A stretch of 64,000 nucleotides of DNA from a virus. Its lineage: Duplodnaviria > Heunggongvirae > Uroviricota > Caudoviricetes. A program made the position numbers and the translations under genes. Below the pieces are notes generated by a model. The model saw only the letters and a program-made list of their open reading frames with translations, was not told where the DNA came from and made no database searches. The stretch is taken from the IMG/VR virus record IMGVR_UViG_2513237368_000009. One strand, given 5' to 3'. How positions within the stretch are numbered: the first letter of the stretch is position 1; every line of letters starts with the position of its first letter. Positions 1,430 to 61,621 of the stretch are shown here, piece after piece.

Positions 1430-2668
1430 ATGTTAGACATAATTAGTGAACCTTTACCATATGAATTTCATGACTTAAAAGATACTTATAAGGATGAACT
1501 TCTACAAGCGAAACTCGATAATAAATTTATTGACAGATTATTCAATGCTAAAGAAATAAATTCTGCAAAAATGCCTTTCACAAAATTGAAGAAAGCAACG
1601 ATTATGTTGAACGCAAAAAGTAGTAATTTTAATAGTTTAGTAAAATATAGATTAAAAGATGGTAAAGGGGAGCTTTTTTCAAACAAACAATTTTTGTATG
1701 ATAATAACGTTAAGTATTTATATTTATCTAATTACTCGAAAGAATATTTAAGTTTAAGTTCTTTAAAGAATATCAATAAAATATTTACAAATATTGAAGA
1801 GATCGAAGTAGAAAATAATAAATCAATTATTAATTTCGATTTAGAGGACATGAATAAAGTTGTAGACTTTTTCAGACACAAATTTATTAATTTTATGACA
1901 TATAGAACGACATTGCTCGAACTTAGTAATTTTATAAAATTCATAGCTAAGGAATATAAGAGTGTTGGCATTGAATATGAAGTTAAGTGGAATTACAAAA
2001 AATTAATAAAAATTATCCCAGATAGTGAAAAACCATCTCCATTTTTAGATGGAAATGAGATTGCTCGACTGGCAGAACGTTCTGATGTGGCACAAAATGG
2101 AGTCGTGTTAATTCTGTTATTGAATGGTTTAAGACTGTCTAGAATTGACGAGAATGATGAAATTAGATTTCTTAAAGAGTCAGATGTTAAAGATGGGGTG
2201 ATTCATGTTCATGGTAAATTCCCTAGAGATATTAAATTAACACCCAGAGAATTTTCCATAGTACAGGATGCGATAGAAGAAGAGTATTATGATACAAAAC
2301 GAAATTGGCTTAGTACCATTCCAAGAACTGGCTATGTTCTAAGACCCTATGGAGAAAATAAAACAACAGCTAATTTAACTGAAGTGGGGATTCAAAAAAG
2401 AATAAGTAATATTGCAAGTAAATTTAGTGATTATATTGTTGAGCGCATATTCACTTATTCATCCATCAGGACTGCTGGAAGAAATAGGTTCATAGATGGA
2501 CTAGTGGATCTTGGATATACATTAGAGGAAGCAGCATACCTCAGTTTGGAAAGATTTGGTGATATCAAATCTGACGTGGATATACTTCAAAGAGAAAAGA
2601 CTGAGAGTGAATATTACATGGCCTACAAGATCAGAAAGACGTATAATAAAAGTAAAGACAACAGTTAA
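1430..2668 (+). CDS. recombinase-like protein (possible divergent tyrosine recombinase)
   Basis: RBS AGGAGG; NGLRLSRIDE (Arg box-like) and SSIRTAGRNRFIDGL C-terminal region; weaker match than upstream gene. Confidence 0.35.
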   Translation: MLDIISEPLPYEFHDLKDTYKDELLQAKLDNKFIDRLFNAKEINSAKMPFTKLKKATIMLNAKSSNFNSLVKYRLKDGKGELFSNKQFLYDNNVKYLYLSNYSKEYLSLSSLKNINKIFTNIEEIEVENNKSIINFDLEDMNKVVDFFRHKFINFMTYRTTLLELSNFIKFIAKEYKSVGIEYEVKWNYKKLIKIIPDSEKPSPFLDGNEIARLAERSDVAQNGVVLILLLNGLRLSRIDENDEIRFLKESDVKDGVIHVHGKFPRDIKLTPREFSIVQDAIEEEYYDTKRNWLSTIPRTGYVLRPYGENKTTANLTEVGIQKRISNIASKFSDYIVERIFTYSSIRTAGRNRFIDGLVDLGYTLEEAAYLSLERFGDIKSDVDILQREKTESEYYMAYKIRKTYNKSKDNS

Positions 2669-2688: not shown

Positions 2689-3174
2689 ATGCAAAACAGA
2701 ATGGACGATTTATTAGAGAATTTGATAGAAGATGAATTTTCATTGGAAATATTGAATTATCTTAAAAATAATAATATTGCGGTAGATATTAGTGAAAATG
2801 ATATTCTAATGAATAGTGAAAGAGATATCATTACAATGTATTATATTCTAAATTGCTATAAAAAATGTGAACTAGAAGCAGTTGTAGAATGTATATCTAA
2901 ATGTGAATTATATGATATCGAAAACATGGTTGTAGAGAATATCCATGATTTTGAATGGTGCTTTGGAACTCAACAGTTTCCCAATCCATTTTTACAAATA
3001 ACTGCTAGTGAAATTAAAGAACTGACCTCTCTAATGTCCAATGAACATATCTCTAACTTCATTCATTCTGAACTTAAAAACTGTTATCGCTTTGGTGTAA
3101 TATCAACAAGTAGAATGCTGTTAAAATTTTTAAGTAGATTAAAGGCACACAAAAACACAAAAATTTTAATATGA
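2689..3174 (+). CDS. hypothetical protein
   Basis: ORF track; RBS GGGAG; terminator follows. Confidence 0.4.
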   Translation: MQNRMDDLLENLIEDEFSLEILNYLKNNNIAVDISENDILMNSERDIITMYYILNCYKKCELEAVVECISKCELYDIENMVVENIHDFEWCFGTQQFPNPFLQITASEIKELTSLMSNEHISNFIHSELKNCYRFGVISTSRMLLKFLSRLKAHKNTKILI

Positions 3175-3183
3175 TTGATAAGA

Positions 3184-3921: not shown

Positions 3922-4493
3922 TTGCTACACACGCAGTAAATTTCTCTTACATCATTAATATGGATAAGCTATTTTCAAAAGAAAATATTAGTGGGTTAAG
4001 AATGGTTTACGGTACTAATGACGAGAATGAAATTTTGAAAAGAATTATGCAAGAACAAGAAAGTAAGATACAACAAGTGTTAAACAGAAACATTTTTGTT
4101 CCAATTGGAGCTACTTGTGAACGTTACGATTCTTACGTTGAAAGACAGAAAAAGATAATGGAACAAATGAATATGGGGCAAGAACAAAGTGTCCAAGGTA
4201 ATCAAGAAACTGCTGATAGTAGTAATATTGACATTAAGGACGAAACAAGAGATAATAAAGAGGAACATTTCGTTCTTTCTGATCAAGAAAGCGAGTTGCT
4301 AAACAATATAGCACAAAGCATTTTTGAATTATCTTCAAAGGGGATCTTGATAGAAAAAATTATGGTGTCAGATAAACTCTCACACGAGGCAGTTCTTAAT
4401 TTATCTAATCAGTATCGGAAACCAATTGTAAAAGGTAAGTTAGCATTGAATGAGTTCAAAATTATTGAAAAAGAAAATACGGAGGCGGAATAA
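3885..4493 (+). CDS. hypothetical protein
   Basis: ORF track; start uncertain. Confidence 0.3.
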   Translation: MGGTKLAEQGQIVATHAVNFSYIINMDKLFSKENISGLRMVYGTNDENEILKRIMQEQESKIQQVLNRNIFVPIGATCERYDSYVERQKKIMEQMNMGQEQSVQGNQETADSSNIDIKDETRDNKEEHFVLSDQESELLNNIAQSIFELSSKGILIEKIMVSDKLSHEAVLNLSNQYRKPIVKGKLALNEFKIIEKENTEAE

Positions 4494-5724: not shown

Positions 5725-6702
5725 ATGCAAGGAAGAAAACCCAATAGTCGTAAAAAAGGTATTAAAATTTTAGTTTATGGTGATACTGGAACAGGGAAAA
5801 CCCTGTTTGGTTTATCATTCCCAAAGATTAAGGCAATTGATTCAGAAGATGGTTATAGCTGGTACGAAGACGATCCAGTGGACGGCAGAAACTTATTAGA
5901 GATTTACGATACTCAAAGTTTCTACGATTTGAAAGATGTTCTTGAAGATCTTATGGAAGATGAAGAGGTTGGTACATTTATCATTGATTCTGAAACAAAG
6001 ATTCATGAAGACATCCAACAAGCATTACTCGATATTGATGAGAAACGTGCAAGACAAAAGGGTAAGAATACTCTTGACGCAAACTTATCAATCAGATCTT
6101 ATGGGAAGATTAAGCAACTTGAAACACGTTTACAAAATGCAAAAATTGCCTTGGCATCTCGTGGTATCAATGTTATTTCTGTAGCACAAATGAAAGATGT
6201 TATGGAAGACGTTTCTGAAACAAAACGTATCAAGGTTGGTGAAGTACCAGATATGAAGAAGAAAGCAACCTATGATTATGACGTAGTTATCAAGTTGTTT
6301 AAAGACGATGAAGATAAATACTTTGGAAAGATTGAAAAAGATCGTACAAAGACAACAACTCTTGGTCAGGTCATCGAGAACCCTAGCTATGAAATTTGGC
6401 AAGAAAGACTCGAAGGCAAGAAAAATCAGGGAGACGTTGTTAAGAAAGATTTCGTTGGTAACAATGATGAGTCTAAACGTAAGTATGAGAACGAACTTGA
6501 AAGTGAAGAGGAAGCAGCCTTACCACCAGCCGATCAGATTAAGAAGTTTGTTATTTCAATTAAGGATAAAGAAGATTTAAAGAAAGAATTTGTCACGGAA
6601 GTAGCGAAGATATCTAAGAAGACATTGAGCAAAATGAGTGACGAAGAACTGGCTGAAGTCTTGAAATTAATCAAAAATTTTAAGGAAGATAAGGGGTTGT
6701 AA
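5725..6702 (+). CDS. P-loop ATPase (RecA/AAA-like, possible recombination/replication ATPase)
   Basis: Walker A VYGDTGTGKT near N-terminus; acidic repeats. Confidence 0.45.
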   Translation: MQGRKPNSRKKGIKILVYGDTGTGKTLFGLSFPKIKAIDSEDGYSWYEDDPVDGRNLLEIYDTQSFYDLKDVLEDLMEDEEVGTFIIDSETKIHEDIQQALLDIDEKRARQKGKNTLDANLSIRSYGKIKQLETRLQNAKIALASRGINVISVAQMKDVMEDVSETKRIKVGEVPDMKKKATYDYDVVIKLFKDDEDKYFGKIEKDRTKTTTLGQVIENPSYEIWQERLEGKKNQGDVVKKDFVGNNDESKRKYENELESEEEAALPPADQIKKFVISIKDKEDLKKEFVTEVAKISKKTLSKMSDEELAEVLKLIKNFKEDKGL

Positions 6703-11531: not shown

Positions 11532-11802
11532 AGATTTAACTTTTAGAATTAAAAGAGATTTTGGAATGACGAAATTTCTCATTAAATGTCGTCCAAATTA
11601 TATGTTCAAGACCACACATGTTGGTGGAGATTCTTTTGAACAAATTAACACTAATAGTAATGTAGTTGTGAAAGAACAAGAGATTAACAAATTAATTGAA
11701 AACGGCAAGACGGTTGTTGTCTTATATGAAGCAGAGCTTAAAATGGACTGCTACAATTTTGAAGATGGAGTTGCGCTATTGAACATGGTGGTGTCTTGTT
11801 AA
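11512..11802 (+). CDS. hypothetical protein
   Basis: ORF track. Confidence 0.3.
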   Translation: MSILGNEDLTFRIKRDFGMTKFLIKCRPNYMFKTTHVGGDSFEQINTNSNVVVKEQEINKLIENGKTVVVLYEAELKMDCYNFEDGVALLNMVVSC

Positions 11803-14078
11803 TGGCAGATACAGAAAGTGTTAAAATCACAGGAAGGTTGAACAGAATTAAATTTGAGTCACAAGATAATGACTTCAAAATAATGGATATTGCGTGTGAA
11901 GACGGCCAGTTAAGGACTCTTAAAGGTGATGCGGATATACTGTTTAATACCGATTATGAGTTTACTTGTTCAATTGAGAATCACCCACGGTTCGGGAAGC
12001 AATATACTATCCAGTATATGAAACGTAAGAAACCGATTGACTCTCTTAGTCAAGAAGATTTTAAAGAGTTCCTAAACATTGCAGTAGGTGGAATTAAAAC
12101 AAAGGCTATTTATGAAACGTTGGAAGATCCTATCGCAGTTTTCAAGAATGGAGATATTGAAGCGTTAAAGACAATCAAAGGTATTGGCGATAGTTATGCT
12201 AATAAGTTGTTGGAGACATACGAATCCCAAAAAGATTACAGCGAAGGATATATTGAGTTTAGTAAGTGGGGTTTCACTCCTAAGTTCACAAGAAAGGTTA
12301 TTAAGAAAAAGGGTTCAGTTGAGTTAGCAATCAAAGCACTCAAAGAAAATCCATATAGCCTCATGGAATTATCGGGAGTTGGTTTTAAAACGATAGATAA
12401 CAAAGCCTTAGAGCATGGTATCAAACCTAACGATAAAAGACGTGTTAGAGCGTTCATTGAGAATTTCTTTAGTAATCTTGCTATGGACGGGAACTCATAT
12501 ATCAATTTGAATAAGTTTTTGCTTTATTTGAAGAATGAGATCTTTGAGTGTGACTTGAAATATATAACAAAATATTTAGCTGAAAGTGATAAATATGTTG
12601 TATATACTCATGAAAACGAACGAAGAATAAGTACCAAAATGACTTTTAATACATTACAAGGTATATCAAGAGAATTGTTGAGAATATTGCTATGCAAGAA
12701 ACACTTAAAAATTGAGGGTCAGGATAAGATTGTTAAAAAGACCGAGGAAGAACAAGGTTGGGAATATTCTGATGAACAGCGAAATGTTATTGATCAGATG
12801 ACGAAATATAACGTCTTTCTTCTACAAGGTTTAGCTGGTACTGGTAAAAGTTCTGTCGTTAATGGTTTCCTACAAATATTACAGCAGAATAATTATGAGT
12901 ATAAACAATGTGCATTGTCTGGTAAGGCTGCTCAAAATTTAGCTGGGATCACAGGTAAAATGGGAAGTACCATTCATTCATTGCTTGGATATACACAAGA
13001 AGGTTTCTTTTACAATGAAAACACGAAACTACCTACTCATGCCGTAATTTTAGATGAAATATCCATGGTTGATATAGATATCTTTTACGCATTGTTAAAG
13101 GCTATTCCTAGTGGAGCTAAGTTAGTTATGATTGGTGATAGCGGACAGTTGGATTCAATTGGTGTGGGTGTCATGGAAGAGATAATTAAGTCTAAGGCAA
13201 TTCCGACATTCACTTTGAAGAAGATTCATAGACAGGCGCAAGATTCCGCTATGATTACTCATTCAATAGCCTTTCGTAAAGGTAAATATCCATCAGAGTT
13301 ATCTACGAAACACAAGTATAAAGTTTATGGTTTTAAGAAAGATTTAGGATATACTTTTGTTCCTTCAAATGAGTCAAATATTCCGATTGAAACAATGAGG
13401 ATATATAAGACTTTGGTCAAGAAATTTGGTGTAGATGATACACAGATTATCACTCCGACAATCTCTTCTGGAACTACAAACTGTAACATGTTAAATGATA
13501 CGTGTCAGAAATTAGTCAACCCACCTAACCCCAATTTATTAGAGGTTGAATTAAATAGAGGTGGTGGAGAGAAGTTCATTATCAGAGAAAACGATCGGGT
13601 AATCAATACACGTAATAATCCTAGGACACAAGATGTTGACGGAAAGAGTTTGCCAATTTTCAATGGTAATACTGGAAGAGTTGAAGAGATTGTACTTAAT
13701 GCTGAGGGTCATTTAGATAAGATGACAGTTAATTTTGACGGTATTGGCAGAGTTATTATCGGGAGCAAGGATATAAAATACATTAATTTGTCTTATGCTA
13801 TGACAGTTCATAAGTCACAAGGTAGCACAATTAAATGTGTAATCGTATCTTTACCATTCCAATATATGTTAGATACACGAGAGCTGTTATATACAGCAAT
13901 CACTAGAGCATCTAATTTAGCCTATATCGTCACGTCACCTAAGACATTGAAGAGTACAGTTGGAAAATCAAGTAAGAAGTTACATGATAATGAACTAGGG
14001 GCATTAATTCGTTTACAAGCTATGAAAATTATAGAAAAGAACAAAAAGAAAGGAAGTAATAAGAATGAGGGTATTTAA
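11796..14078 (+). CDS. RecD-like SF1 ATP-dependent DNA helicase
   Basis: Walker A LQGLAGTGKSS, Walker B ILDEISM, C-terminal YAMTVHKSQGS motif typical of RecD/TraA-like helicases; N-terminal HhH-like region. Confidence 0.65.
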   Translation: MLMADTESVKITGRLNRIKFESQDNDFKIMDIACEDGQLRTLKGDADILFNTDYEFTCSIENHPRFGKQYTIQYMKRKKPIDSLSQEDFKEFLNIAVGGIKTKAIYETLEDPIAVFKNGDIEALKTIKGIGDSYANKLLETYESQKDYSEGYIEFSKWGFTPKFTRKVIKKKGSVELAIKALKENPYSLMELSGVGFKTIDNKALEHGIKPNDKRRVRAFIENFFSNLAMDGNSYINLNKFLLYLKNEIFECDLKYITKYLAESDKYVVYTHENERRISTKMTFNTLQGISRELLRILLCKKHLKIEGQDKIVKKTEEEQGWEYSDEQRNVIDQMTKYNVFLLQGLAGTGKSSVVNGFLQILQQNNYEYKQCALSGKAAQNLAGITGKMGSTIHSLLGYTQEGFFYNENTKLPTHAVILDEISMVDIDIFYALLKAIPSGAKLVMIGDSGQLDSIGVGVMEEIIKSKAIPTFTLKKIHRQAQDSAMITHSIAFRKGKYPSELSTKHKYKVYGFKKDLGYTFVPSNESNIPIETMRIYKTLVKKFGVDDTQIITPTISSGTTNCNMLNDTCQKLVNPPNPNLLEVELNRGGGEKFIIRENDRVINTRNNPRTQDVDGKSLPIFNGNTGRVEEIVLNAEGHLDKMTVNFDGIGRVIIGSKDIKYINLSYAMTVHKSQGSTIKCVIVSLPFQYMLDTRELLYTAITRASNLAYIVTSPKTLKSTVGKSSKKLHDNELGALIRLQAMKIIEKNKKKGSNKNEGI

Positions 14079-16902: not shown

Positions 16903-17082
16903 ATGAGTCAGAAGAGAGCTAGAAAATGGTACGATCAGTTAAAGGACACAAAGGTTCGTATGCGCAATGATGGTCATGAGATGTGGATTGAAAATAACAC
17001 TCTTGTCACTAGGAATATAGATAATGGCATTATTAGCAAGTATGATAAGTATGGATTTGTAATTGCAACAGAAATAATTTAA
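16903..17082 (+). CDS. small hypothetical protein (59 aa, not in ORF track)
   Basis: GAGGAGGAAAAG RBS then ATG 16903; stop TAA 17080. Confidence 0.4.
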   Translation: MSQKRARKWYDQLKDTKVRMRNDGHEMWIENNTLVTRNIDNGIISKYDKYGFVIATEII

Positions 17083-17100
17083 TAGTAGTAATATTGACAT
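17080..17100 (+). promoter_or_regulatory. conserved 21-bp motif, exact copy
   Basis: TAATAGTAGTAATATTGACAT then TTAGGAGG ATG. Confidence 0.6.
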
Positions 17101-17118
17101 TTAGGAGGTATAATAACA

Positions 17119-27214: not shown

Positions 27215-28680
27215 TATTTATAGGGTCGGTAACTAAGAAAACTTATGCTTTTAATCGTAAGATGAATTAGTGCCTTGACCGACCAGAATTGTATTCTGTT
27301 ACTTGGTTCTCAATATGCTGAAATTTTGGAGAAAAGCTTGACATCAAAGGAGGTGAACCTGAATGTATCAAGGCCTTAAACTACGGATATATCCTAATTT
27401 AGAACAACAAAAACAAATAGTTGAGAACTTTGGGGCAACTAGATTTGTTTGGAATCAGATGTTGGATATGCAAAGCAAGCGTTATAAAAATAATAAAGAT
27501 TCTAAGTTCTTAAATGGTTTTGCAATGAACTTCTTATTAAGGCAATTAAAAACAGAATATCCATGGTTAAAACAAGCTGAGAGCACCTCACTACAAGACA
27601 CTTGTGAAACTCTAGCTGTAGCTTTCCAAAGATTTTTTAAGAAGCTTGGGGGATATCCTAAATTTAAGTCGCGAAAATTTCCAAAGCAAAGTTTTAAATC
27701 TAAATGTATAAATAACAATGTTAGATTGATTGATAATCATTATTTGAAGCTGCCTAAATTAGGCATTATGAAGTACAGAGGGAAATTCACTGATGACAAA
27801 ATCAAGTCAACGACTATCCAGTTAAGTCCAACAGGCAAGTTCTATTGCGTTTTACTAATTGAGTGTGAAAATCAAACACAATTTAGTAAGACAAATAAAA
27901 CTGTCGGTTTGGATATGGGGATAGCTGATTTAATAATTACATCAGATGCTGTTAAATATCCGACAATTAGGTTTGATCAGATTCTTGCTAAGAAGAAACA
28001 CTATTGGGAAAAACGACTAGCTAGAAGAAGGCTATTAGCACAAAAAGAAATAGCTTGGGATAAACACAACAAAGTCGTTGAACCTAGAGAACTAGCCAAC
28101 TTTAAGAACTATACCAAGGCTAAACAGATGGTCGCTAAATATAGTGAAAAGATAGCTAACCAGAGGAAAGATTATCTTCATAAGATTACAATTGGGTTAG
28201 TTAAAGACTATGACAAAATAGTGATTGAAGATTTGAAAACTAATAATATGATTAAGAATCACAAATTAGCCAGAGCAATCGCTAACCAATCTTGGAGAAT
28301 GCTTAGACTAATGTTGGAATATAAGTGCAAATGGTATGGCAAAGTCCTTAGTGTGGTTAATCCATACAAGACTAGTCAACTCTGCTTTAATTGTGGATAT
28401 GATGATGGTAAACACGAACTAGATATTCGTGCTTGGACTTGTCCTCAATGCCATACACAGCTAGATAGAGATGTAAACGCAAGTAAAAATATATTAAAAC
28501 TTGGTTTGGGCTAAACCTTAGTAAATAGAGTAAACCGCTGTCGAATACTGAAATGTATGAGATAAGTTATGCTTGTTCCTAGAAGCTCGGTACTTTAGTG
28601 CCGACGTAAGTCACACAACAATGAGTACAAGGTTTTCGATACAGCGGGTACAAAATTACCAGAGGGTGACGAGTTTATCA
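27215..28680 (+). mobile_element. IS200/IS605-family element carrying tnpB only (IS1341-like); ends approximate
   Basis: left subterminal hairpin GGTCGGT...ACCGACC (27223-27284); similar TAGTGCC..CCGAC at right end; omegaRNA-like structured 3' region 28515-28680. Confidence 0.5.
27363..28514 (+). CDS. tnpB: TnpB (OrfB) RuvC-like RNA-guided nuclease of IS200/IS605 family
   Basis: N-terminal LKLRIYPNLEQQKQIVENFGATRFVWNQ; C-terminal zinc finger CFNCGY...CPQCHTQLDRDVNASKNIL. Confidence 0.7.
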   Translation: MYQGLKLRIYPNLEQQKQIVENFGATRFVWNQMLDMQSKRYKNNKDSKFLNGFAMNFLLRQLKTEYPWLKQAESTSLQDTCETLAVAFQRFFKKLGGYPKFKSRKFPKQSFKSKCINNNVRLIDNHYLKLPKLGIMKYRGKFTDDKIKSTTIQLSPTGKFYCVLLIECENQTQFSKTNKTVGLDMGIADLIITSDAVKYPTIRFDQILAKKKHYWEKRLARRRLLAQKEIAWDKHNKVVEPRELANFKNYTKAKQMVAKYSEKIANQRKDYLHKITIGLVKDYDKIVIEDLKTNNMIKNHKLARAIANQSWRMLRLMLEYKCKWYGKVLSVVNPYKTSQLCFNCGYDDGKHELDIRAWTCPQCHTQLDRDVNASKNILKLGLG

Positions 28681-30641: not shown

Positions 30642-31315
30642 TTATACAAATGAGTTATATAATAATAACATGGTTGAGGTTGATAACAATATCCCCTTGG
30701 TTTGAATCCATAAAAATAGGCTTTTGATTAGTTCGATAGTCTAGCTTGTTGCATTAACAAATCTGAGTCGTAAAAAGCGTCAAAGAGGTCTAGTAACTAG
30801 AGAATGAGTACAATATTTGTCTACTCATAATATGATACTGACCAAGACGAATATTGTACAAAAAACCTTTGGCTGGCATCGGGCTAGGCTAGTAGAAGAT
30901 GTCCACTGTACAAGATGATAACTTGTACACTCCCTACTCATCAATAGGGTTATTCTGAATTACGACTCAGATACATAAAGGATTGGGAGATAGGGCGATA
31001 GTATTTGTCGCTGTCAACTATCTAAATAAAATGAGGAATTTAGTATTCTTCAAAGTCGCTTGGTTTTGTTAAGCATCCGTACCTTTTCCAAGGGACTGGC
31101 AGTGAATGTCATAGAATTGATTTGTTTCTAGAGCATATCAGTGGGAGCATCACCCACCATTCACATTAACACCTATTCTTTAGTGAGTACGAGTGTTGAG
31201 CGTTCATCAAATTGCCTTGCATGGCGAGAAAAATATGTTATCGGAGTGAGGCGGCAATACCAAAATTCAATGATGATAATATTGACAGAATTTTACTCTT
31301 TTGTCTGTCAAACAT
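30642..31315 (+). other. 0.67-kb ORF-free structured region downstream of promoter and upstream of tRNAs (candidate ncRNA/leader)
   Basis: no ORF over 60 aa on + strand; multiple hairpins, e.g. GAGTACAATATT..AATATTGTAC and GATAGT..ACTATC. Confidence 0.35.
31274..31288 (+). promoter_or_regulatory. partial motif copy (TGATAATATTGACAG) immediately upstream of tRNA-Arg
   Basis: 3' half of consensus. Confidence 0.35.
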
Positions 31316-31389
31316 AGTTGTGTAGCTCAATTGGATAGAGCAACTGACTTCTAATCAGTAGGTTATCGGTTCGAGTCCGATCATAACTA
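31316..31389 (+). tRNA. tRNA-Arg (anticodon TCT)
   Basis: manual fold: acceptor AGTTGTG/CATAACT, D-arm GCTC-AATTGGATA-GAGC, anticodon arm ACTGA-CTTCTAA-TCAGT, T-arm ATCGG-TTCGAGT-CCGAT. Confidence 0.75.
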
Positions 31390-31471
31390 TTACCAAAAAT
31401 AAAAATCATGGAGTTTTTGGTAATAATGCACGTTTTTACCCCAACAAGTATGAGTTCCAACAGCTCATAGT

Positions 31472-31542
31472 GCCTGATTAGTTCAATGGTAGAACATTGG
31501 TCTAGTAATCCAACGACAACAGTTCGATTCTGTTATTAGGCA
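31472..31542 (+). tRNA. tRNA (anticodon uncertain: AGT-Thr if loop CTAGTAA, or TAG-Leu)
   Basis: acceptor GCCTGAT/ATTAGGC, D-arm GTTC-AATGGTA-GAAC, T-arm AACAG-TTCGATT-CTGTT; anticodon stem has a T-T mismatch. Confidence 0.55.
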
Positions 31543-31547
31543 TTCGT

Positions 31548-49050: not shown

Positions 49051-49064
49051 GTCTTTCCTCCTAA

Positions 49065-49089
49065 ATGTCAATATTACTACTATTAAATT
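49065..49089 (-). promoter_or_regulatory. conserved motif, exact copy on minus strand, abuts SD of HAD gene
   Basis: minus: AATTTAATAGTAGTAATATTGACAT then TTAGGAGG. Confidence 0.6.
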
Positions 49090-49315: not shown

Positions 49316-50660
49316 AAGACTCATAGCTAATATCGTCAATATTTTTATCCGAACGTACACTCTTGAACGTTGGGAATCTCAGTGACTTACCACCATTTTG
49401 ATTTTCACTCTCTTCAAAATACTGAACATCAATGATTTTACCGATAATATCTTCAGGGTTATTCCAGTATTTAACTCTATCATCTTCAGTAAAACCAGAT
49501 CCAACTTGAACCTCAAAATCTTTGAATTGAATAATAACTCCACCTAGCTTATTCTTATTTGCTCCCGTTCCCTCATAAACGTCTTTTACGAGTACGTCTG
49601 CATTAAAGAATTGCTTAATCTTCAATAGGTCTGGTGTACGTTTTGTCTTATAAAAGCTGTCATTAAAGTTGAGCATGAGTCCTTCCCAACCTAACTTCTT
49701 AACTTTCTCATCTTGCAGTTTTGCAATAATGCTAGTATCATTTCCAGAATACAATGTAGGAACGATTTTTAATTTGAAATCTGTGGCAACCATATCATAA
49801 CTTGATGTGAATGTTACATATGATTCAGCCAACTTAGATTTTCTGTCAAGATAAGCTAGTTTAGATTCGCCCTCAAAAAATTCATCAAGTGGTAACCAGT
49901 CAAATACATTAAATAAAATACCAGTTTTATCAGCTTTGTCATTTTTCAATACTTTTGCTGTTGCTCTGAATAGGTCTTTAGTTTCGAGATTATCCTTATT
50001 ATCCAGAACTAGTTCACCATCTAATACTACTGGCTTACCTTGATTGATAATATTTGCCAATACCTCAACTTGTTTTCCCAATAGGTCAAGTCCAACATAT
50101 CTAATTCCTTGTCGTGTGAAGAATGCGACCTCGACACCATCACAGATAGCAACACAACGGTGTCCATCTAGTTTTTGTGTGATACTAAAATCTCTTCCAC
50201 TTTCAACTCTGTCTGGATATTTGTTCATAGGATAAGCCAACTGGCAACTGAACTCCTTGATAAAGCCTTTACACAATGCTTTGTTAATCGACTTAGCTGT
50301 GATCCCAACTTTGATATTCTTAGCAAAAATGTTAAGGATAAATTGTTCAACGCTTTCTGAATACTTCTTAGCGAAATTTTTAATGTTCGATACTACTTGT
50401 AATTTACCAGTATTGTTTTCTTCAACATATTCCATTAATTCAAGAATGTTGTTAAAATCTTGATCTGGTTCAACCAAATCAGTTACCGACATTTTCTTTG
50501 TACTGATACCTGTACGGATAAAATCGTCAAACACAAATTTCAAGACTTCTTTGAATAATATGTTATCCTCATTTTCTTTAATGATAGATACCTTTTCATT
50601 TTTTGAAGATGTTTCAGAGATACGCTGGAAGATAGTTGCTATTTCGATAATGTTTTGCAT
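49314..50660 (-). CDS. ATP-dependent DNA ligase
   Basis: motif I KLDGHR (KxDG), EGLMLNF motif IV, K-rich motif V. Confidence 0.6.
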   Translation of the reverse strand: MQNIIEIATIFQRISETSSKNEKVSIIKENEDNILFKEVLKFVFDDFIRTGISTKKMSVTDLVEPDQDFNNILELMEYVEENNTGKLQVVSNIKNFAKKYSESVEQFILNIFAKNIKVGITAKSINKALCKGFIKEFSCQLAYPMNKYPDRVESGRDFSITQKLDGHRCVAICDGVEVAFFTRQGIRYVGLDLLGKQVEVLANIINQGKPVVLDGELVLDNKDNLETKDLFRATAKVLKNDKADKTGILFNVFDWLPLDEFFEGESKLAYLDRKSKLAESYVTFTSSYDMVATDFKLKIVPTLYSGNDTSIIAKLQDEKVKKLGWEGLMLNFNDSFYKTKRTPDLLKIKQFFNADVLVKDVYEGTGANKNKLGGVIIQFKDFEVQVGSGFTEDDRVKYWNNPEDIIGKIIDVQYFEESENQNGGKSLRFPTFKSVRSDKNIDDISYES

Positions 50661-51361
50661 TGTGATTTCTCCTTTTTTATGTCAAATTTATTTTCAATTC
50701 TTGTCTTAGCTACGTCAAAATACTCTTCGTTTAGCTCTATGCCAATAAATCTACGTTTTAGGTTTAAGGCTGCTATGCCTGTTGACCCACTACCCATGAA
50801 ACAGTCCAATACTATGTCATTCTCATTACTGTGTCGTAATATCAATTCTTCCATTAGTTCTACAGGCTTTTGTGTTGGATGAAACTTATTCTTACCAGAT
50901 ACAATAGGATATCTTAATTCAGAACGGTCATACTTATCTGATTGTCTATTGAAAGTCCATTTGCCCTTCTTAATAGCTACTATTGCAAATTCATAATCAA
51001 CAATATATCTTCTATCTCTATTTCTTGGCATTGGATTGGTCTTTTCCCATCTAATAAGGTCTTTTACTATCAATCCTGATTTTTCTAATTCTTTTGCGAT
51101 ATCCCCTAAATTTTTCCAATCATTAAACACGATCAACGTACCACCACGTTTAAGGGTACGAGCAGCATCACTTATCCATGTGAGAATGTCTGCATCATGA
51201 TCCCATGTACCAAAATCAATGCTACTTCTACCCATAGTGTCAAAGTTGTTATCTTTGGCAATATTATATGGAGGGTCTGTTAGAACTAAGTCAATGCTTT
51301 CATTGGGTATCTTTTTCATTGCCACAAGACAATCGCCATTTTGCAAGGCATATTTACTCAT
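50639..51361 (-). CDS. DNA methyltransferase (N6-adenine/N4-cytosine, DPPY class)
   Basis: LVLTDPPYNI and FMGSGSTGIAA (AdoMet motif I). Confidence 0.65.
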   Translation of the reverse strand: MSKYALQNGDCLVAMKKIPNESIDLVLTDPPYNIAKDNNFDTMGRSSIDFGTWDHDADILTWISDAARTLKRGGTLIVFNDWKNLGDIAKELEKSGLIVKDLIRWEKTNPMPRNRDRRYIVDYEFAIVAIKKGKWTFNRQSDKYDRSELRYPIVSGKNKFHPTQKPVELMEELILRHSNENDIVLDCFMGSGSTGIAALNLKRRFIGIELNEEYFDVAKTRIENKFDIKKEKSQCKTLSK

Positions 51362-52151
51362 GAACCAACTCCCCCTTCGCCTTTATGTCAATATTACTAC
51401 TATTGATACGCTCTTTAGCAATGTAAAAATAATCATCTTCCTTTTCAATACCCAAAAATCTACGACTAGTATTTAAACAGGCGACACCAGTTGAACCTGA
51501 ACCCATACAGTTATCTAACACTAGGTCATTTTCATTTGTATAAGTTTTTATGAGATATTCAAGTAATTCAACGGGCTTTTGGGTCGGATGCAGCCTATCC
51601 TTGTTTACAATGTTAGATACAGTAACTATACTTGTGGGATATTTCATATTGCTATCCTGAGCTTTTGTATAATTCTTGTGATCATAACTTCCGTACACTT
51701 TGCTATTGTCCATACTATTGCCTTTGTTTTCCCATTTCTTACCTCGTGAATGACTTGGCTCTCCACCTTCTGTCATTTGAGGATTATAGATTGGCAATTT
51801 TTTGTAGAACACAAGAATATCCTCATGTTTGCGCAAAGGCATTCGATTTGCATTAAGAAAACCTGTTGTCCTAACTTTGTCCCAAACCAACGTGTATCTA
51901 TACATTCTCTCATTTGATAAGATTAACTTAGCAGAGAAAGCGTTCTGACCAAACAGTACGATAGCACCATTTTCCTTAATGACTCTTTTATACTCTTTCC
52001 ATAATTCATCAAAAGGAATAATGCTATCCCATTTATTATGAGTAACCTTACCATACGGTAGATCACATAGAATCATGTCAATACTTCCATTAGGTATCTT
52101 CTGCATTACTTCAAGACAATCACCCTTTTGTAAGGCATATTTATTACTCAT
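51354..52151 (-). CDS. DNA methyltransferase (second, DPPY-like class)
   Basis: ILCDLPYGKV and CMGSGSTGVAC motifs. Confidence 0.6.
   Translation of the reverse strand: MSNKYALQKGDCLEVMQKIPNGSIDMILCDLPYGKVTHNKWDSIIPFDELWKEYKRVIKENGAIVLFGQNAFSAKLILSNERMYRYTLVWDKVRTTGFLNANRMPLRKHEDILVFYKKLPIYNPQMTEGGEPSHSRGKKWENKGNSMDNSKVYGSYDHKNYTKAQDSNMKYPTSIVTVSNIVNKDRLHPTQKPVELLEYLIKTYTNENDLVLDNCMGSGSTGVACLNTSRRFLGIEKEDDYFYIAKERINSSNIDIKAKGELVHE
51385..51408 (-). promoter_or_regulatory. conserved motif, exact copy, inside 3' end of upstream MTase gene and just upstream of downstream MTase SD
   Basis: minus: TATCAATAGTAGTAATATTGACAT then AAAGGCGAAGGGGGAG ATG. Confidence 0.55.
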
Positions 52152-58564: not shown

Positions 58565-59215
58565 GTGGAAATTACATTGAATAATGGAGGCAACAAAATG
58601 ACATTTAAGGATTCAGACAAAATCTCTAAATCCAGAATTATTAATTTAAGAGAAAAGAACAATCTTACACAAAATGAACTAGCTGAAAAAGTAGGTATAA
58701 ATAGATCTGTTTTAAATCGCATAGAGAATGGCTCTCGTCATCTAAGAGATGATGAGGTAGTTAAATTAGCTAATTATTTTCATGTTTCGACTGACTATCT
58801 TCTTGGGAATGATAGAATGCGTTGCGAAAACCACATTGAAGCGATATCCAAAGATTCAGATGAAATACTTAAAACCAAAATCATTAATTTGAGAGAGAAA
58901 AATAAGCTCACACAAAATGGGCTTGCAGAAAAAGTTGGACTCGATGCTACTATAATTAGCAAGATTGAAAATGGAACAAGAAAAGTGTCTAGCTCTGAAT
59001 TAAACAGGTTTGCTAATATTTTCTCTGTGTCCGCTGATTATCTTCTTGGGAATACGTCCAATAGATATCAAGATGAAGTGGATCTAAAAGACTTTTTAGA
59101 TCAGAATTTCAATAAAGGTATGAGTTATGCAGATGAGGAACTTACTGACGAAGATAAACAAAGATTAAAAATTGCACTCACTCAGATTTTTTGGAAATAT
59201 CATAATAAAAAATGA
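58565..59215 (+). CDS. XRE-family transcriptional regulator with two tandem HTH domains
   Basis: duplicated IINLREKN(N/K)LTQNELAEKVG...IENGSR modules. Confidence 0.65.
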   Translation: MEITLNNGGNKMTFKDSDKISKSRIINLREKNNLTQNELAEKVGINRSVLNRIENGSRHLRDDEVVKLANYFHVSTDYLLGNDRMRCENHIEAISKDSDEILKTKIINLREKNKLTQNGLAEKVGLDATIISKIENGTRKVSSSELNRFANIFSVSADYLLGNTSNRYQDEVDLKDFLDQNFNKGMSYADEELTDEDKQRLKIALTQIFWKYHNKK

Positions 59216-59311
59216 ATGATAAAATCATAGTTTTATCATTCATTAAAAGTGCTATTCACATCCAGTTAAGGATTGCATGTACTCGAAAGTTTCCTTATTT
59301 TTTATTTTGAT

Positions 59312-59358
59312 AGATTCACGTTTTTCAGAAGTGAAAGACGTGAATCTATTTTCTTTAT
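59312..59358 (+). terminator. 10-bp perfect inverted repeat AGATTCACGT..16 nt..ACGTGAATCT followed by T-rich run (terminator or operator)
   Basis: seen directly 100 nt after XRE stop. Confidence 0.4.
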
Positions 59359-59467
59359 TAATAAGAAACTCTTTCTTTTTACGTTCTTTTGCATTGATAA
59401 GTTTTCTATTCATGAACATACCTCATTTATAGTGTACTTTAAAAGCCTGTTACTTTTGCAGAGTAAA

Positions 59468-59539
59468 CAGATCATGTTGGAATCGAACCAACGTCAAGAG
59501 TTTTGGAGACTCCTATTCTACCAATTGAACTAATGACCT
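59468..59539 (-). tRNA. tRNA-Trp (anticodon CCA)
   Basis: manual fold on minus strand: acceptor AGGTCAT/ATGATCT, D-arm GTTC-AATTGGTA-GAAT, anticodon arm GGAGT-CTCCAAA-ACTCT, T-arm GTTGG-TTCGATT-CCAAC. Confidence 0.65.
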
Positions 59540-59893
59540 ATATAGTTACAAGGCTGCTTTTGAGGTCTATTACCTTGTTCGCAGCATTCAACGGAACTTG
59601 CGTATTCTAATTCAAAAACATGTAGTATTTGAAATGTGACCCACATTACTGATCACCCTCGCACCCTGTAATTATAAAAGAATTAATTTATAGTCGTACT
59701 TTAATCGACTTTTATCCAGCCAATAAATGCAAGTTCTATGGATTCACTCCTAACTTGCAATGCTCAGGGAAGGATTTGCACCTACATAGCCACAATGACG
59801 ACAGATTTACAGTCTGCGGAGTTCTCTAATACTCAGCCCAAGCGTGTTATTCTTATTTATTTGTTTCCAATTTTGAATCTAAAATCTGAGTAC

Positions 59894-60184
59894 GTTTTCC
59901 TTATCTAAAGGTTTTAATCTGACTAAAACGCATGTATGCTAACCATTGCAGTTTTCCCTATCTAAGGATTCTAGTCAAACTAAAACAAGAGCTTTCAATA
60001 CACATTTCAGTCCAGTGTTTTCCTTATCTAAGGATTCTAGTCAAACTAAAACGCTTTTTCGGAATATCCTATCTTGTCTGTAGTTTTCCTTATCTAAGGA
60101 TTCTAGTCAAACTAAAACTACAGTTGGAAAATCAAGTAAGAAGTTACAGTTTTCCTTATCTAAGGATTCTAGTCAAACTAAAAC
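59894..60184 (-). CRISPR. CRISPR mini-array: 5 x 36-bp repeats (consensus on + strand GTTTTCCTTATCTAAGGATTCTAGTCAAACTAAAAC), spacers of 21, 30, 30, 30 nt
   Basis: repeats at 59894, 59951, 60017, 60083, 60149; leftmost repeat degenerate with truncated spacer, so leader inferred at right and transcription on minus strand (repeat then reads GTTTTAG..., type II-A-like). Confidence 0.85.
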
Positions 60185-60287
60185 CTCAAAATATCCTATC
60201 ATCACTTCAAGGCTTCCTAGGAACTCCGAACCATTGTCCAGATATTTACTAGGCTATTATGGATTGATGGAAACTTCCAATCCTAAT

Positions 60288-60368
60288 GGAACTGGATAGA
60301 TTTGAACTATCTGAGCTTTTAACACTTCCAGTTATTGAGTATTACTAGCATTACCCAATTCAGTTCCG
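60288..60368 (-). tRNA. tRNA-like element (81 nt) with aberrant core; possible unusual or pseudo-tRNA
   Basis: perfect 7-bp acceptor GGAACTG/CAGTTCC and canonical T-arm GATAG-TTCAAAT-CTATC; D/anticodon arms could not be folded canonically by hand. Confidence 0.35.
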
Positions 60369-60970
60369 TTTTCGGGAGAAACTCTCTTTATACTGGTTCT
60401 CCTCTTGTTCCAGTTATGCAAGTGGCATGGATTCAAACCATACAGTGACTAACTTTATAATACTGGCTTACCTCGTACATTAGGTGTAGTCAGGTGTTCT
60501 CACGGTTTTACTCACGCAACCAGTCAAACCTTAGCGTTACTCTCTGCGCCACACTTGCTAGTAATCTACCCGAAGGAAACCAACCATAAGAAGGTCTAAG
60601 TAGTAGAATGGGAACTCACATGCCCCACTTGAATGGACGATTGCCTATACCACATCGCTCACGTTCTTTCCTTTTTAGTGACCACACTAGCAGCTCGGTA
60701 TAGAACCTACTCGTTGGATTTAATCTCAAACCCGATGATTCAATGTCTATATTAGCATTGAATTATTTTTGACTAGTCATAATTCCAAAAAACCGCCTTT
60801 GTGGGTCGAACCGAATTATGTTGACGAAATGTCTAGAGTGTCAATTCTATTAACATTTCACCCTTTTTGACATATCTAGGAAAGATTTGACTGATCTTTC
60901 AGTTGTATGCTAGTGCCAATGGATTGGGTTTAATTTATTACTGCGTATTTAAAGATTACTTTAAATACTA

Positions 60971-61039
60971 TGTGACATATGAGAATCGAACTCATATCAC
61001 TTGTGAAGGTCAAGTGCGCTACCATTACGCCAATGTCAC
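60971..61039 (-). tRNA. tRNA-like (69 nt), anticodon loop ACCTTCA (CTT-Lys reading but C33/C37 non-canonical)
   Basis: perfect acceptor GTGACAT/ATGTCAC, D-arm GCGT-AATGGTA-GCGC, stem CACTTG/CAAGTG, T-arm ATGAG-TTCGATT-CTCAT. Confidence 0.45.
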
Positions 61040-61258
61040 TACGATGCGTTTAATATAATCGCCAAATTATATTAAACGACTTTTAGGAGGCGAACCGCCA
61101 ATAAAAAACGTAATATGACCAGTAGGAATCGAACCTACAAGCCTCGCCAGTGTAAGACCTATTATTTCAAGGTGAATATTACATACTGTCGTCTGCCAGA
61201 CGAGGGTAATACCGCAAATAGCCATAACTTAATTATAATATAACATATCATATTAAAT

Positions 61259-61283
61259 ATGTCAATATTACTACTATTAAATT
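61259..61283 (-). promoter_or_regulatory. conserved motif, exact copy (minus: AATTTAATAGTAGTAATATTGACAT) with TTGACA-17-TATATT, reading into tRNA/CRISPR cluster
   Basis: reverse complement read; downstream (lower coordinates) are tRNA-like genes and the array. Confidence 0.55.
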
Positions 61284-61321: not shown

Positions 61322-61621
61322 TTATAATCTCTTCATTCTTTCCTCAGCGACAGGTTGAAGTATATAAGGGAATCGAGGATTATCTGATGTCATCATTGCA
61401 AATCTCCCAGCCTTGCTTATTAATCCAAATTGTTCCAATAAATGAACTTTTTGGTTGTGTATTGGAAGATTTGCAGAATTAGGATGATTTCTATAGAGTT
61501 CTTTTAAAATTGTCATCGCTTCTGGATCTTGGAATAATTTTTCTTGCTGTTCGGTATAATATTTGTTAAAAGCCAAATCTCTTCTCTTTTTTGCTATTTT
61601 TTTACTTATACGAACCACCAA
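61322..61621 (-). CDS. hypothetical protein with N-terminal TM
   Basis: ORF track. Confidence 0.4.
   Translation of the reverse strand: MVVRISKKIAKKRRDLAFNKYYTEQQEKLFQDPEAMTILKELYRNHPNSANLPIHNQKVHLLEQFGLISKAGRFAMMTSDNPRFPYILQPVAEERMKRL

Follow-up and report, generated by a model that had tools for sequence, protein, structure and literature searches.

The 64,000-nucleotide stretch of viral DNA analysed here (IMG/VR record IMGVR_UViG_2513237368_000009, Caudoviricetes; hereafter the window) carries at positions 59894-60184 a genuine type II-A-style CRISPR array, located on a phage-like element of Liquorilactobacillus (Lactobacillus) mali. The array has the leader-repeat junction of the type II-A system of L. 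mali, a repeat that was found in no other array of the collections searched, and a newest spacer that is an exact copy of part of a helicase gene of the element itself. Neither cas genes nor a tracrRNA (the trans-activating CRISPR RNA) were found with it in the window; therefore, everything else that it needs must come in trans from a host type II-A system. The reading that we favour, at a probability of about 0.42, is that of a trans-dependent orphan type II-A array that would have been extended on the phage by adaptation machinery of the Group-1 II-A kind and could not be read by the known host Cas9-tracrRNA pair. In this phage-borne array of the II-A type, an orphan repeat, an integration junction of the host kind, a perfect self-spacer and a place within a tRNA operon occur together, which is a surprising combination.

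Anatomy and authenticity of the array

Five 36-bp direct repeats follow one another between 59894 and 60184 with a period of 66 bp, the first unit measuring 57 bp. The repeat reads GTTTTCCTTATCTAAGGATTCTAGTCAAACTAAAAC on the plus strand and GTTTTAGTTTGACTAGAATCCTTAGATAAGGAAAAC on the minus strand, and four copies with no more than one mismatch are present in the window, compared to 0 expected from 100 shuffles. From the leader to the trailer, and with the self-protospacer of the newest spacer added at the end, the elements are:

60185-60196, minus strand: 3' end of the leader, reading GGATATTTTGAG; TTTGAG/GTTTT is the same as the L. mali II-A junction, and 6/7 of ATTTGAG is present
60149-60184, minus strand: repeat R5, the leader-proximal first repeat, GTTTTAGTTTGACTAGAATCCTTAGATAAGGAAAAC, identical to R3 and R4
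60119-60148, minus strand: spacer S4, newest and leader-proximal, 30 nt, a 30/30 copy of 13955-13984
60083-60118, minus strand: repeat R4, identical to R3 and R5
60053-60082, minus strand: spacer S3, 30 nt, without match
60017-60052, minus strand: repeat R3, identical to R4 and R5
59987-60016, minus strand: spacer S2, 30 nt, without match
59951-59986, minus strand: repeat R2, 1 mismatch
59930-59950, minus strand: spacer S1, truncated to 21 nt, without match
59894-59929, minus strand: repeat R1, terminal, at the trailer end; 30/36 identical, with 6 mid-repeat substitutions and both ends intact
13955-13984, plus strand: self-protospacer matched by S4; it encodes aa 720-729, in the C-terminal tail, within the RecD2-like helicase open reading frame (ORF) 11796-14078, and is followed by TGATAA

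The four spacers (three of 30 nt and the trailer-end one of 21 nt) all differ from one another. Type II-A repeats are 36 nt long and start with GTTT, those of Groups 1 and 2 also ending in AAAC (PMC5382924); the repeats of the array are 36 nt long with a GTTT start and an AAAC end, in line with that description, and they separate unique spacers of ~30 nt. An initial annotation made from the sequence alone had already listed five repeats at these coordinates with a 21-nt leftmost spacer, which repeat alignment and the shuffle test confirm, and had correctly inferred GTTTTAGTTTGACTAGAATCCTTAGATAAGGAAAAC as the transcribed repeat. Its assignment of the geometry to type II-A is borne out by the 36-nt repeats, the 30-nt spacers and the Group-1 leader end, and its interpretation of the degenerate leftmost repeat as a trailer end agrees with the six substitutions in R1, far from the leader.

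The genes of the window are identical to those of contig AYYH01000006.1 (assembly GCA_001436535.1), an accession assigned in two papers to L. mali KCTC 3596 = DSM 20444. A second DSM 20444 assembly (AKKT01000168.1) has the same sequence with 1 mismatch in 12.1 kb, and the Logan assembly of run SRR1151218 has it at 100% identity. The edges of the array are reproduced by these two independent strain assemblies and by the Logan assembly; the AKKT01000168.1 and SRR1151218 contigs end within R5 and R3, which is typical assembler behaviour at arrays, and IMG/VR lists as viral a 32,643-bp contig, apparently AKKT01000168.1, with a partial R5 at its end.

A spacer identical to part of the carrier genome

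Spacer S4 (60119-60148) equals positions 13955-13984 over 30/30 nt, with 0 extra identical bases on either side, and the matching segment lies near the end of the 760-aa RecD2-like helicase gene (11796-14078). Because the copy is both exact and bounded by the spacer borders, it bears the signature of integration by Cas1-Cas2 and not of recombination. The initial annotation, whose account of the array's anatomy stands, had missed this self-match. No match was found for S1-S3 in the window, in 9.7 kb upstream and 8.3 kb downstream of it, among GenBank phages, or in IMG/VR by exact 20-/21-mers, where the copy of the AKKT contig adds ~29 kb of the phage; the spacer searches covered all of the phage except ~24 kb, the host chromosome being outside their scope.

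A repeat with no counterpart in the collections searched

Two tandem repeat patterns had no match in 185,579 GTDB species representatives, nor had the 5' 21-mer of the repeat in JGI metagenomes, nor the exact 36-mer and the 5' 18-mer in IMG/VR. Neither GenBank phages nor PLSDB plasmids gave a match to the array region in DNA searches, near or distant. Two reading frames run open through the repeat and are preserved by the 66-nt unit; peptides of array-derived ORFs were also compared with 5.8 billion protein clusters, without a match. The 20-mer GATTCTAGTCAAACTAAAAC, the 3' half of the plus-strand repeat, had three matches in IMG/VR. One of them is apparently this L. mali contig again, as copied in IMG; the remaining two, at 261-280 and 3158-3177 of their contigs, are single, lie within ORFs, encode DSSQTKT and are not arrays. 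These collection scans needed exact stretches of 14-21 nt, so that a diverged family member could escape them. The initial annotation had proposed as a check to search the repeat against CRISPR repeat databases and host genomes; the collections named above returned no array with the phage repeat, and the repeat of L. mali itself is a different one, the two repeat bodies being 18-21/36 identical, which is not significant.

Relationship of the array to the type II-A system of L. mali

A PNAS 2025 data set (PMC11929499) gives for L. mali a Cas9 of 1174 aa together with its repeat (GTTTTTGCACTCTCAACATTTTCCTATCAATAAAAC), its tracrRNA and a protospacer-adjacent motif (PAM), NNATAA, which was predicted from spacer-protospacer matches and is unvalidated for L. 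mali (PMC11929499). The full-length Cas9 was retrieved with a padded 1070-aa chimeric query, a 399-aa query having given short fragments only. The locus, the only II-A system found in L. mali, consists of cas9, the tracrRNA gene, cas1, cas2, csn2 and a 67-nt leader ending in AATTTGAG, followed by an array in which 17-22 repeats, each 36 nt long, alternate with spacers that measure 30-32 nt and in most cases 30 nt, and its leader-repeat junction reads ...AATTTGAG|GTTTTTGCAC. It is present in ATCC 27304 and in several other strains and samples, and the Cas9 proteins of Lactobacillus sp. UCMA15818 and L. hordei (73-75% identical) accompany a repeat that is kept at 35/36 positions and an unchanged leader end. 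Of the three members of the 90% Cas9 cluster, not one belongs to the SRR1151218 contigs or to any of the two DSM 20444 assemblies; therefore, the phage-bearing strain DSM 20444 is probably without the L. mali II-A system.

The phage and L. mali loci have in common the 11-mer TTTGAGGTTTT (TTTGAG|GTTTT), 8/10 of the last leader bases, the GTTTT...AAAAC ends and the 36/30 geometry, and no leader homology was found beyond the junction. The minus-strand flank at R5 reads ...GGATATTTTGAG|GTTTTAGTTTG, i.e. TTTTGAG|GTTTTAG, with a perfect GAG/GTTT junction and a leader end that matches the Group-1 ATTTGAG at 6/7 positions; a leader ending in ATTTGAG and a GAG/GTTT junction occur in 87/167 type II-A loci (Van Orden 2017, PMC5382924). 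In the window TTTGAG turns up at 0.00033 per position, whereas TTTGAGGTTT is present a single time, at the leader-repeat junction. Four DNA elements determine the specificity of the II-A integrase of Streptococcus thermophilus: the terminal 10 bp of the leader, the junction, and two blocks, one in the leader-proximal part of the repeat and one by the repeat-spacer border (Kim 2019, PMC6895254), the middle of the repeat being irrelevant to Cas1-Cas2, which makes off-target integrations at junction mimics in vitro (PMC6895254). The phage repeat retains the integrase elements so defined, namely the junction and both ends.

Pairing with tracrRNA gives a different result. On a scale on which a perfect match reaches -57 kcal/mol and real pairs lie between -36 and -47 kcal/mol, the L. 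mali tracrRNA forms a duplex of -42.2 kcal/mol with its own repeat versus -10.5 kcal/mol, the level of shuffled sequences, with the minus-strand phage repeat, and the tracrRNAs of four other lactobacilli (five tested in all) likewise do not pair with it. The initial annotation had expected the array to use a host Cas9 and tracrRNA and had advised a search for the anti-repeat in the host; the known L. mali system lends this expectation no support, given the two duplex energies and the failure to find Cas9 in the carrier strain. The plus-strand repeat pairs with nt 18-44 of the L. mali tracrRNA at -21.3 kcal/mol, a value that only 6/1000 shuffles reach, and the minus-strand repeat weakly resembles the tracrRNA core (84/2000 shuffles score as well). 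Neither the window nor 15 kb of its flanks yielded an anti-repeat, the best duplex there (-24.8 kcal/mol) lying in coding DNA.

Scans of the 78 window ORFs with PADLOC and Pfam gave no Cas9, Cas1, Cas2 or Csn2 among the matches listed (the 25 families with the most ORFs); a tblastn comparison of the window with the Cas proteins of L. mali yielded no match below E = 1.5, and no remnant of csn2 or another cas gene was found; and the gene tables of 15 kb of flanks contain no Pfam match to a cas family. The sole relative of an RNA-guided nuclease in the window is a TnpB of 383 aa (27363-28514, plus strand) with HTH_OrfB_IS605, OrfB_IS605 and Cas12f1-like TNB domains. Accordingly, the earlier statement that the 64 kb hold no Cas-like ORF is right for Cas9, Cas1, Cas2 and Csn2 and overlooks TnpB. 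As an effector of the array TnpB was ruled out: 31 kb separate the two, and no repeat-like sequence lies close to the TnpB gene.

One host array also records the phage. The newest spacer of ATCC 27304 (TGATTTGAGAATAATCTTGCTTGACAAGAT) matches the phage contig at 27/30 positions, ~5.7 kb upstream of the window start (locus coordinates 3988-4017), with CAAAAA as the 3' flank of the match, and it is the sole match to the phage among ~67 host-array spacers (duplicates from two identical arrays included). Hence a Cas9-positive L. mali has met this phage lineage, which is a natural target of the system. On the plus strand the 3' flank of the S4 protospacer, TGATAA, fits the predicted L. mali PAM NNATAA; the minus-strand 3' flank is CTCTTCA. 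Since NNATAA occurs at 0.0098 per position in the window, a chance match on either of two sides has a probability of ~0.02, and the TGATAA is suggestive only, either of a rare flipped integration by machinery of the L. mali type or of coincidence.

Functional strand and tRNA-operon setting

The array is surrounded by the following features:

61322-61618, minus strand: SieB-like ORF of 98 aa, Pfam SieB (superinfection exclusion protein B) at 30.5 bits versus a cutoff of 26, directly upstream of the operon promoter
61237-61265, minus strand: copy of a phage-wide promoter, TTGACA-17-TATATT with an extended TG, directed at tRNA-Lys and the array
60971-61039, minus strand: tRNA-Lys(CTT), upstream of the array and transcribed in the same direction
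60815-60844, minus strand: second sigma-70-like site, TTGACA-18-CATAAT, 630 nt upstream of the array
59761-59843, minus strand: weak Tyr-like tRNA (GTA), 50 nt downstream of R1, Rfam 32.5 bits versus a threshold of 29
59467-59540, minus strand: tRNA-Trp(CCA), downstream of the array

Four independent features support the minus strand as the functional one: the leader junction, the decayed repeat at the far end, the promoters and the three tRNAs. The initial annotation had chosen the same strand, and its further proposals, minus-strand tRNAs on both sides and a promoter motif at 61259-61283 upstream of a tRNA operon that includes the array, agree with the positions of the tRNAs (Trp, Lys and the weaker Tyr-like one) and of the promoters. 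The promoter motif is a real member of a phage-wide family, TTAATAGTAGTAATATTGACAT, with at least 10 plus-strand copies in the left arm (4214-31571) and at least 6 minus-strand copies in the right arm (35368-61941), the switch of strand near 34 kb coinciding with the flip in GC skew. The 630 nt of leader closest to the array gave no promoter-like site, the nearest being that at 60815-60844, and on the plus strand the best promoter match for the array reaches only 9/12. The SieB-like ORF is context and lies outside the array proper.

The 785 nt between the array and tRNA-Lys (60185-60970) are free of ORFs, contain T-loop-like motifs and degenerate tRNA-like elements that are called under relaxed ARAGORN settings, fold mildly better than expected (z -1.8) and have no Rfam match at E up to 10. 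Derivation of the repeat from a tRNA fragment was ruled out, the array having no match to a tRNA covariance model, as was a structured repeat resembling a single-guide RNA (sgRNA), the fold z-score being -1.04. The plus-strand repeat ends in ACTAAAAC, which resembles type VI-A (Cas13a) repeats; measured against what we take to be the Cas13a repeat architecture, a type VI-A array was set aside, the stem being 11 nt from the tail and the plus-strand spacers sense to the helicase mRNA.

A proposed orphan array open to acquisition, and its alternatives

In the reading that we favour, the array, lying inside a minus-strand tRNA operon, would probably be transcribed as part of that operon from the phage promoters at ~61265 and ~60844, and cuts by RNase P/Z at the flanking tRNAs may trim the precursor, so that tRNA-mediated release of the precursor CRISPR RNA (pre-crRNA) is plausible. 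A Cas1-Cas2 of the S. thermophilus CRISPR1 type, as found in L. mali strains, would load spacers at TTTGAG|GTTTT while the array resided on the phage; the L. mali machinery is the obvious candidate, and acquisition in cis would be the simplest account of the exact helicase-gene spacer. In the known hosts such an array could be loaded and not read, its repeat body being unlike that of L. mali and beyond pairing by the tracrRNA. The perfect self-spacer would be harmless because no compatible Cas9 and tracrRNA are present. We infer that the array is inert at present, most likely an orphan in its known hosts.

Several considerations weigh against this reading. The leader motif is generic for Group-1 II-A loci and therefore does not single out the L. 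mali machinery, the PAM of which is a bioinformatic prediction only; the TGATAA lies on the side that corresponds to a plus-strand reading, so that a flipped integration or chance (~0.02) is required. The absence of Cas9 from DSM 20444 comes from protein-cluster look-ups and not from a whole-genome scan, a cognate Cas9 and tracrRNA could exist in an unsampled strain, scans with exact 14-21-mers miss repeats that differ by a few bases, and the sequence examined spans all but ~24 kb of the phage. The six substitutions in R1 beside the identity of R3-R5 imply long retention, which hints at a selected function and not at inert carriage. The operon is presumably strongly expressed and stands beside a SieB-like gene, which fits a role in conflict between phages.

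Such a role is the core of an alternative that is possible though unlikely, namely that the array is a virus-borne mini-array that borrows Cas9, tracrRNA and RNase III from an unsequenced host with exactly this repeat and is directed against competing phages or plasmids. On this account, S4 would be aimed at the helicase gene in closely related phages, and the copy in the carrier would be spared by a minus-strand flank (CTCTTCA) lacking the PAM of that Cas9. Every hallmark of the array is canonical for type II-A; it sits in a promoter-driven tRNA operon adjoined by the SieB-like superinfection-exclusion ORF; its terminal repeat has decayed while the newer repeats stayed perfect, as expected of long retention; and known viral mini-arrays mostly target relatives of their carriers (PMC11656645; PMC6858448). 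However, the repeats in the known cases are identical to those of the host (PMC11656645), whereas the GTDB, JGI, IMG/VR and peptide searches yielded no array with this one, and the relatives of Cas9 in Liquorilactobacillus (73-75% identical) go with repeats that retain 35/36 positions of the L. mali one; the phage repeat is therefore no close variant within the local family. Moreover, the self-match is perfect and not diverged, no phage relatives were found that might serve as targets, and S1-S3 match nothing. That the array is instead a decoy against host CRISPR is improbable. It could act as a sponge, the plus-strand RNA binding nt 18-44 of the tracrRNA, or as a sink, in which a junction mimic on a multi-copy phage genome absorbs Cas1-Cas2 integrations into repeats that cannot pair with the tracrRNA (anti-adaptation at a neo-CRISPR locus). 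The sink taken by itself, in which the mimic would recruit Cas1-Cas2-Csn2-Cas9 of L. mali and host memory would be written into an unreadable phage locus, is a shade more improbable; if true, neither a natural neo-CRISPR of type II-A nor an anti-adaptation decoy would have been known before it. The retention of the integrase determinants (the junction and both ends) and not of the tracrRNA-pairing body speaks for a decoy, as do a newest spacer derived from the phage with the predicted host PAM beside its protospacer and an orphan repeat sequence, expected of a duplicated phage site; the plus-strand duplex of -21.3 kcal/mol, reached by 6/1000 shuffles, and the precedents of RNA-based anti-CRISPRs and viral sgRNAs (PMC10651486; bioRxiv 10.64898/2026.06.01.729453) also agree with it. 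Yet the un-expanded ancestral site is hypothetical, the PAM stands on the side expected of a flipped spacer, the pairing with tracrRNA becomes marginal once four tests are allowed for and requires transcription of the plus strand, with its 9/12 promoter match, integration events would seldom become fixed in a phage lineage, and the decay of R1 speaks of age and not of recent accidents.

Two further explanations do without CRISPR function. Very little probability attaches to a Cas-independent antisense regulator, in which minus-strand S4 RNA would act on the 3' end of the RecD2-like helicase mRNA through RNase III cleavage or a block of translation at a set time of infection, the CRISPR-like frame being incidental: the minus-strand transcript would be complementary to the plus-strand mRNA and the operon is promoter-driven, but the target is within the last 40 codons, a poor position for control, and the other spacers, the repeat architecture and the leader motif are left unexplained. 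It is scarcely credible that the array is not CRISPR at all, be it a set of replication iterons or of protein-binding repeats, or else an artefact or chimera of the assembly. Evenly spaced repeats in a non-coding stretch close to replication genes would suit iterons, but a unique 30-nt spacer is a border-to-border exact copy of a distant coding segment, the leader-repeat junction is that of type II-A, the 66-bp period holds with spacers that are not repeated, and the two strain assemblies and the SRR1151218 Logan assembly concur at the edges of the array and break inside repeats.

Comparison with known systems

Virus-borne mini-arrays, known from portogloboviruses of Sulfolobales and from many prophages (Medvedeva 2019, PMC6858448; PMC11656645), are likewise short, viral, without cas genes and dependent on the Cas proteins of the host, and the tie to superinfection conflict proposed for them is plausible for the phage array too, given its SieB-like neighbour. 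They differ in carrying host-identical repeats and one or two spacers against related viruses, whereas the phage array has an orphan repeat and four spacers, and the only target that could be identified for it is the carrier's own genome, matched perfectly. Group-1 II-A arrays, such as CRISPR1 of S. thermophilus (St1Cas9) and the cas9-cas1-cas2-csn2 locus of L. mali, have the same 36-nt GTTT...AAAC repeat, 30-nt spacers, (A)TTTGAG leader end and degenerate terminal repeat; however, these loci have adjacent cas genes and a tracrRNA, and the phage array is without both.

Off-target ('neo-CRISPR') spacer integration by Cas1-Cas2 has reportedly been described by Nivala et al. in 2018 for type I-E. 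Neo-CRISPR loci resemble the phage array in having a non-canonical repeat of canonical length at a motif like a leader junction, spacers of canonical length and no cas genes nearby; they differ in that the ancestral single-copy site is hypothetical here and that the decayed terminal repeat suggests an old array. We know of no neo-CRISPR integration described within the genome of a phage or, as a natural event, for type II-A. Polycistronic arrays of tRNAs and guide RNAs are said to have been engineered by Xie et al. in 2015. In these, tRNAs flank each guide, which is released by RNase P/Z, whereas in the phage they flank the whole array, the arrangement is natural and the processing is putative; the tRNA-operon setting is thus a natural counterpart of the engineered arrays.

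RNA anti-CRISPRs, including solitary repeat units or Racrs (PMC10651486), are phage-encoded RNAs derived from CRISPR without cas genes, as the array's would be, and could compete for or mislead host components; viral sgRNAs and rAcrIIA1 (bioRxiv 10.64898/2026.06.01.729453, 10.64898/2026.06.03.729762) and viral RNAs resembling CRISPR RNA (bioRxiv 10.1101/2024.10.29.618823) belong to the same class without cas genes. Unlike these, which mimic the host repeat or a full sgRNA scaffold, the phage repeat mimics neither (its fold z-score is -1.04) and forms a true array with several spacers.

Phage-borne arrays have been understood as copies of host arrays that borrow the effector of the host. The present array departs from this in three testable ways: its repeat has no known partner, it keeps only the DNA elements that the integrase needs, and its newest spacer perfectly copies part of a gene of the carrier. 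If the spacers were added on the phage, host adaptation machinery would use phage DNA as a target locus, an event that the phage might turn to its advantage, as with a decoy, or simply undergo. A cognate Cas9, if there is one, would represent a II-A family of food-fermentation lactobacilli that is so far unsampled and whose repeat and tracrRNA are new. L. mali is a cider bacterium, and both the carrier DSM 20444 and the Cas9-positive ATCC 27304 are culturable strains available from culture collections, which makes the system experimentally tractable.

The carrier element

Contig coordinates imply a total of ~126.6 kb for the element. Phage-like genes of the window encode a DnaE-type polymerase, a primase, a RecD2-type helicase, a ligase, methyltransferases, nucleotide kinases and a GH25-LysM lysin, the large tail-region genes being outside the window. 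The DnaE-type polymerase is at most 39% identical to that of any GenBank phage. No phage relatives were found in IMG/VR. Two distant metagenome relatives have DnaE proteins 49-50% identical; tRNAs and tandem arrays were not seen on those of their contigs that were examined, the junction site not having been searched for there.

The initial annotation had regarded the surroundings of the array as typical of a lytic phage, which is doubtful. The window contains two tyrosine-recombinase-like ORFs (295-1344 and 1430-2668, plus strand), and a HigB-type toxin with an adjacent HTH protein is encoded just upstream of it (flanking-locus coordinates 5785-6380). These genes, together with the presence of the element in two type-strain assemblies, fit a resident phage or phage-plasmid better than a lytic phage; the recombinases and the HigB-like toxin/HTH pair suggest, from gene content, a temperate or plasmid-like lifestyle over a strictly lytic one.

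An inverted pair of promoter motifs (17079-17108 and 49058-49087) coincides with both ends of AYYH01000006.1. The 31,952 bp between them (17107-49058), a separate piece in the AYYH01 assembly, may be an invertible segment or a plain assembly join.

Other features of the window

Adjoining the tRNA/array operon and transcribed divergently from it is a duplicated regulator of the XRE type (58565-59215, plus strand), with two HTH_3 domains, an internal 45-nt DNA repeat at 58766/59009 and a strong 19-bp terminator hairpin (59309-59350) at its end. Two tandem paralogous genes for N6/N4 DNA methyltransferases (50639-51361 and 51354-52151, minus strand) have a 91-nt repeat in common at 77% identity, and a Dam-family methylase is encoded elsewhere in the window. 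The left arm has a second small tRNA cluster on the plus strand, at 31315-31390 and 31471-31543 (Arg-TCT, Thr-AGT).

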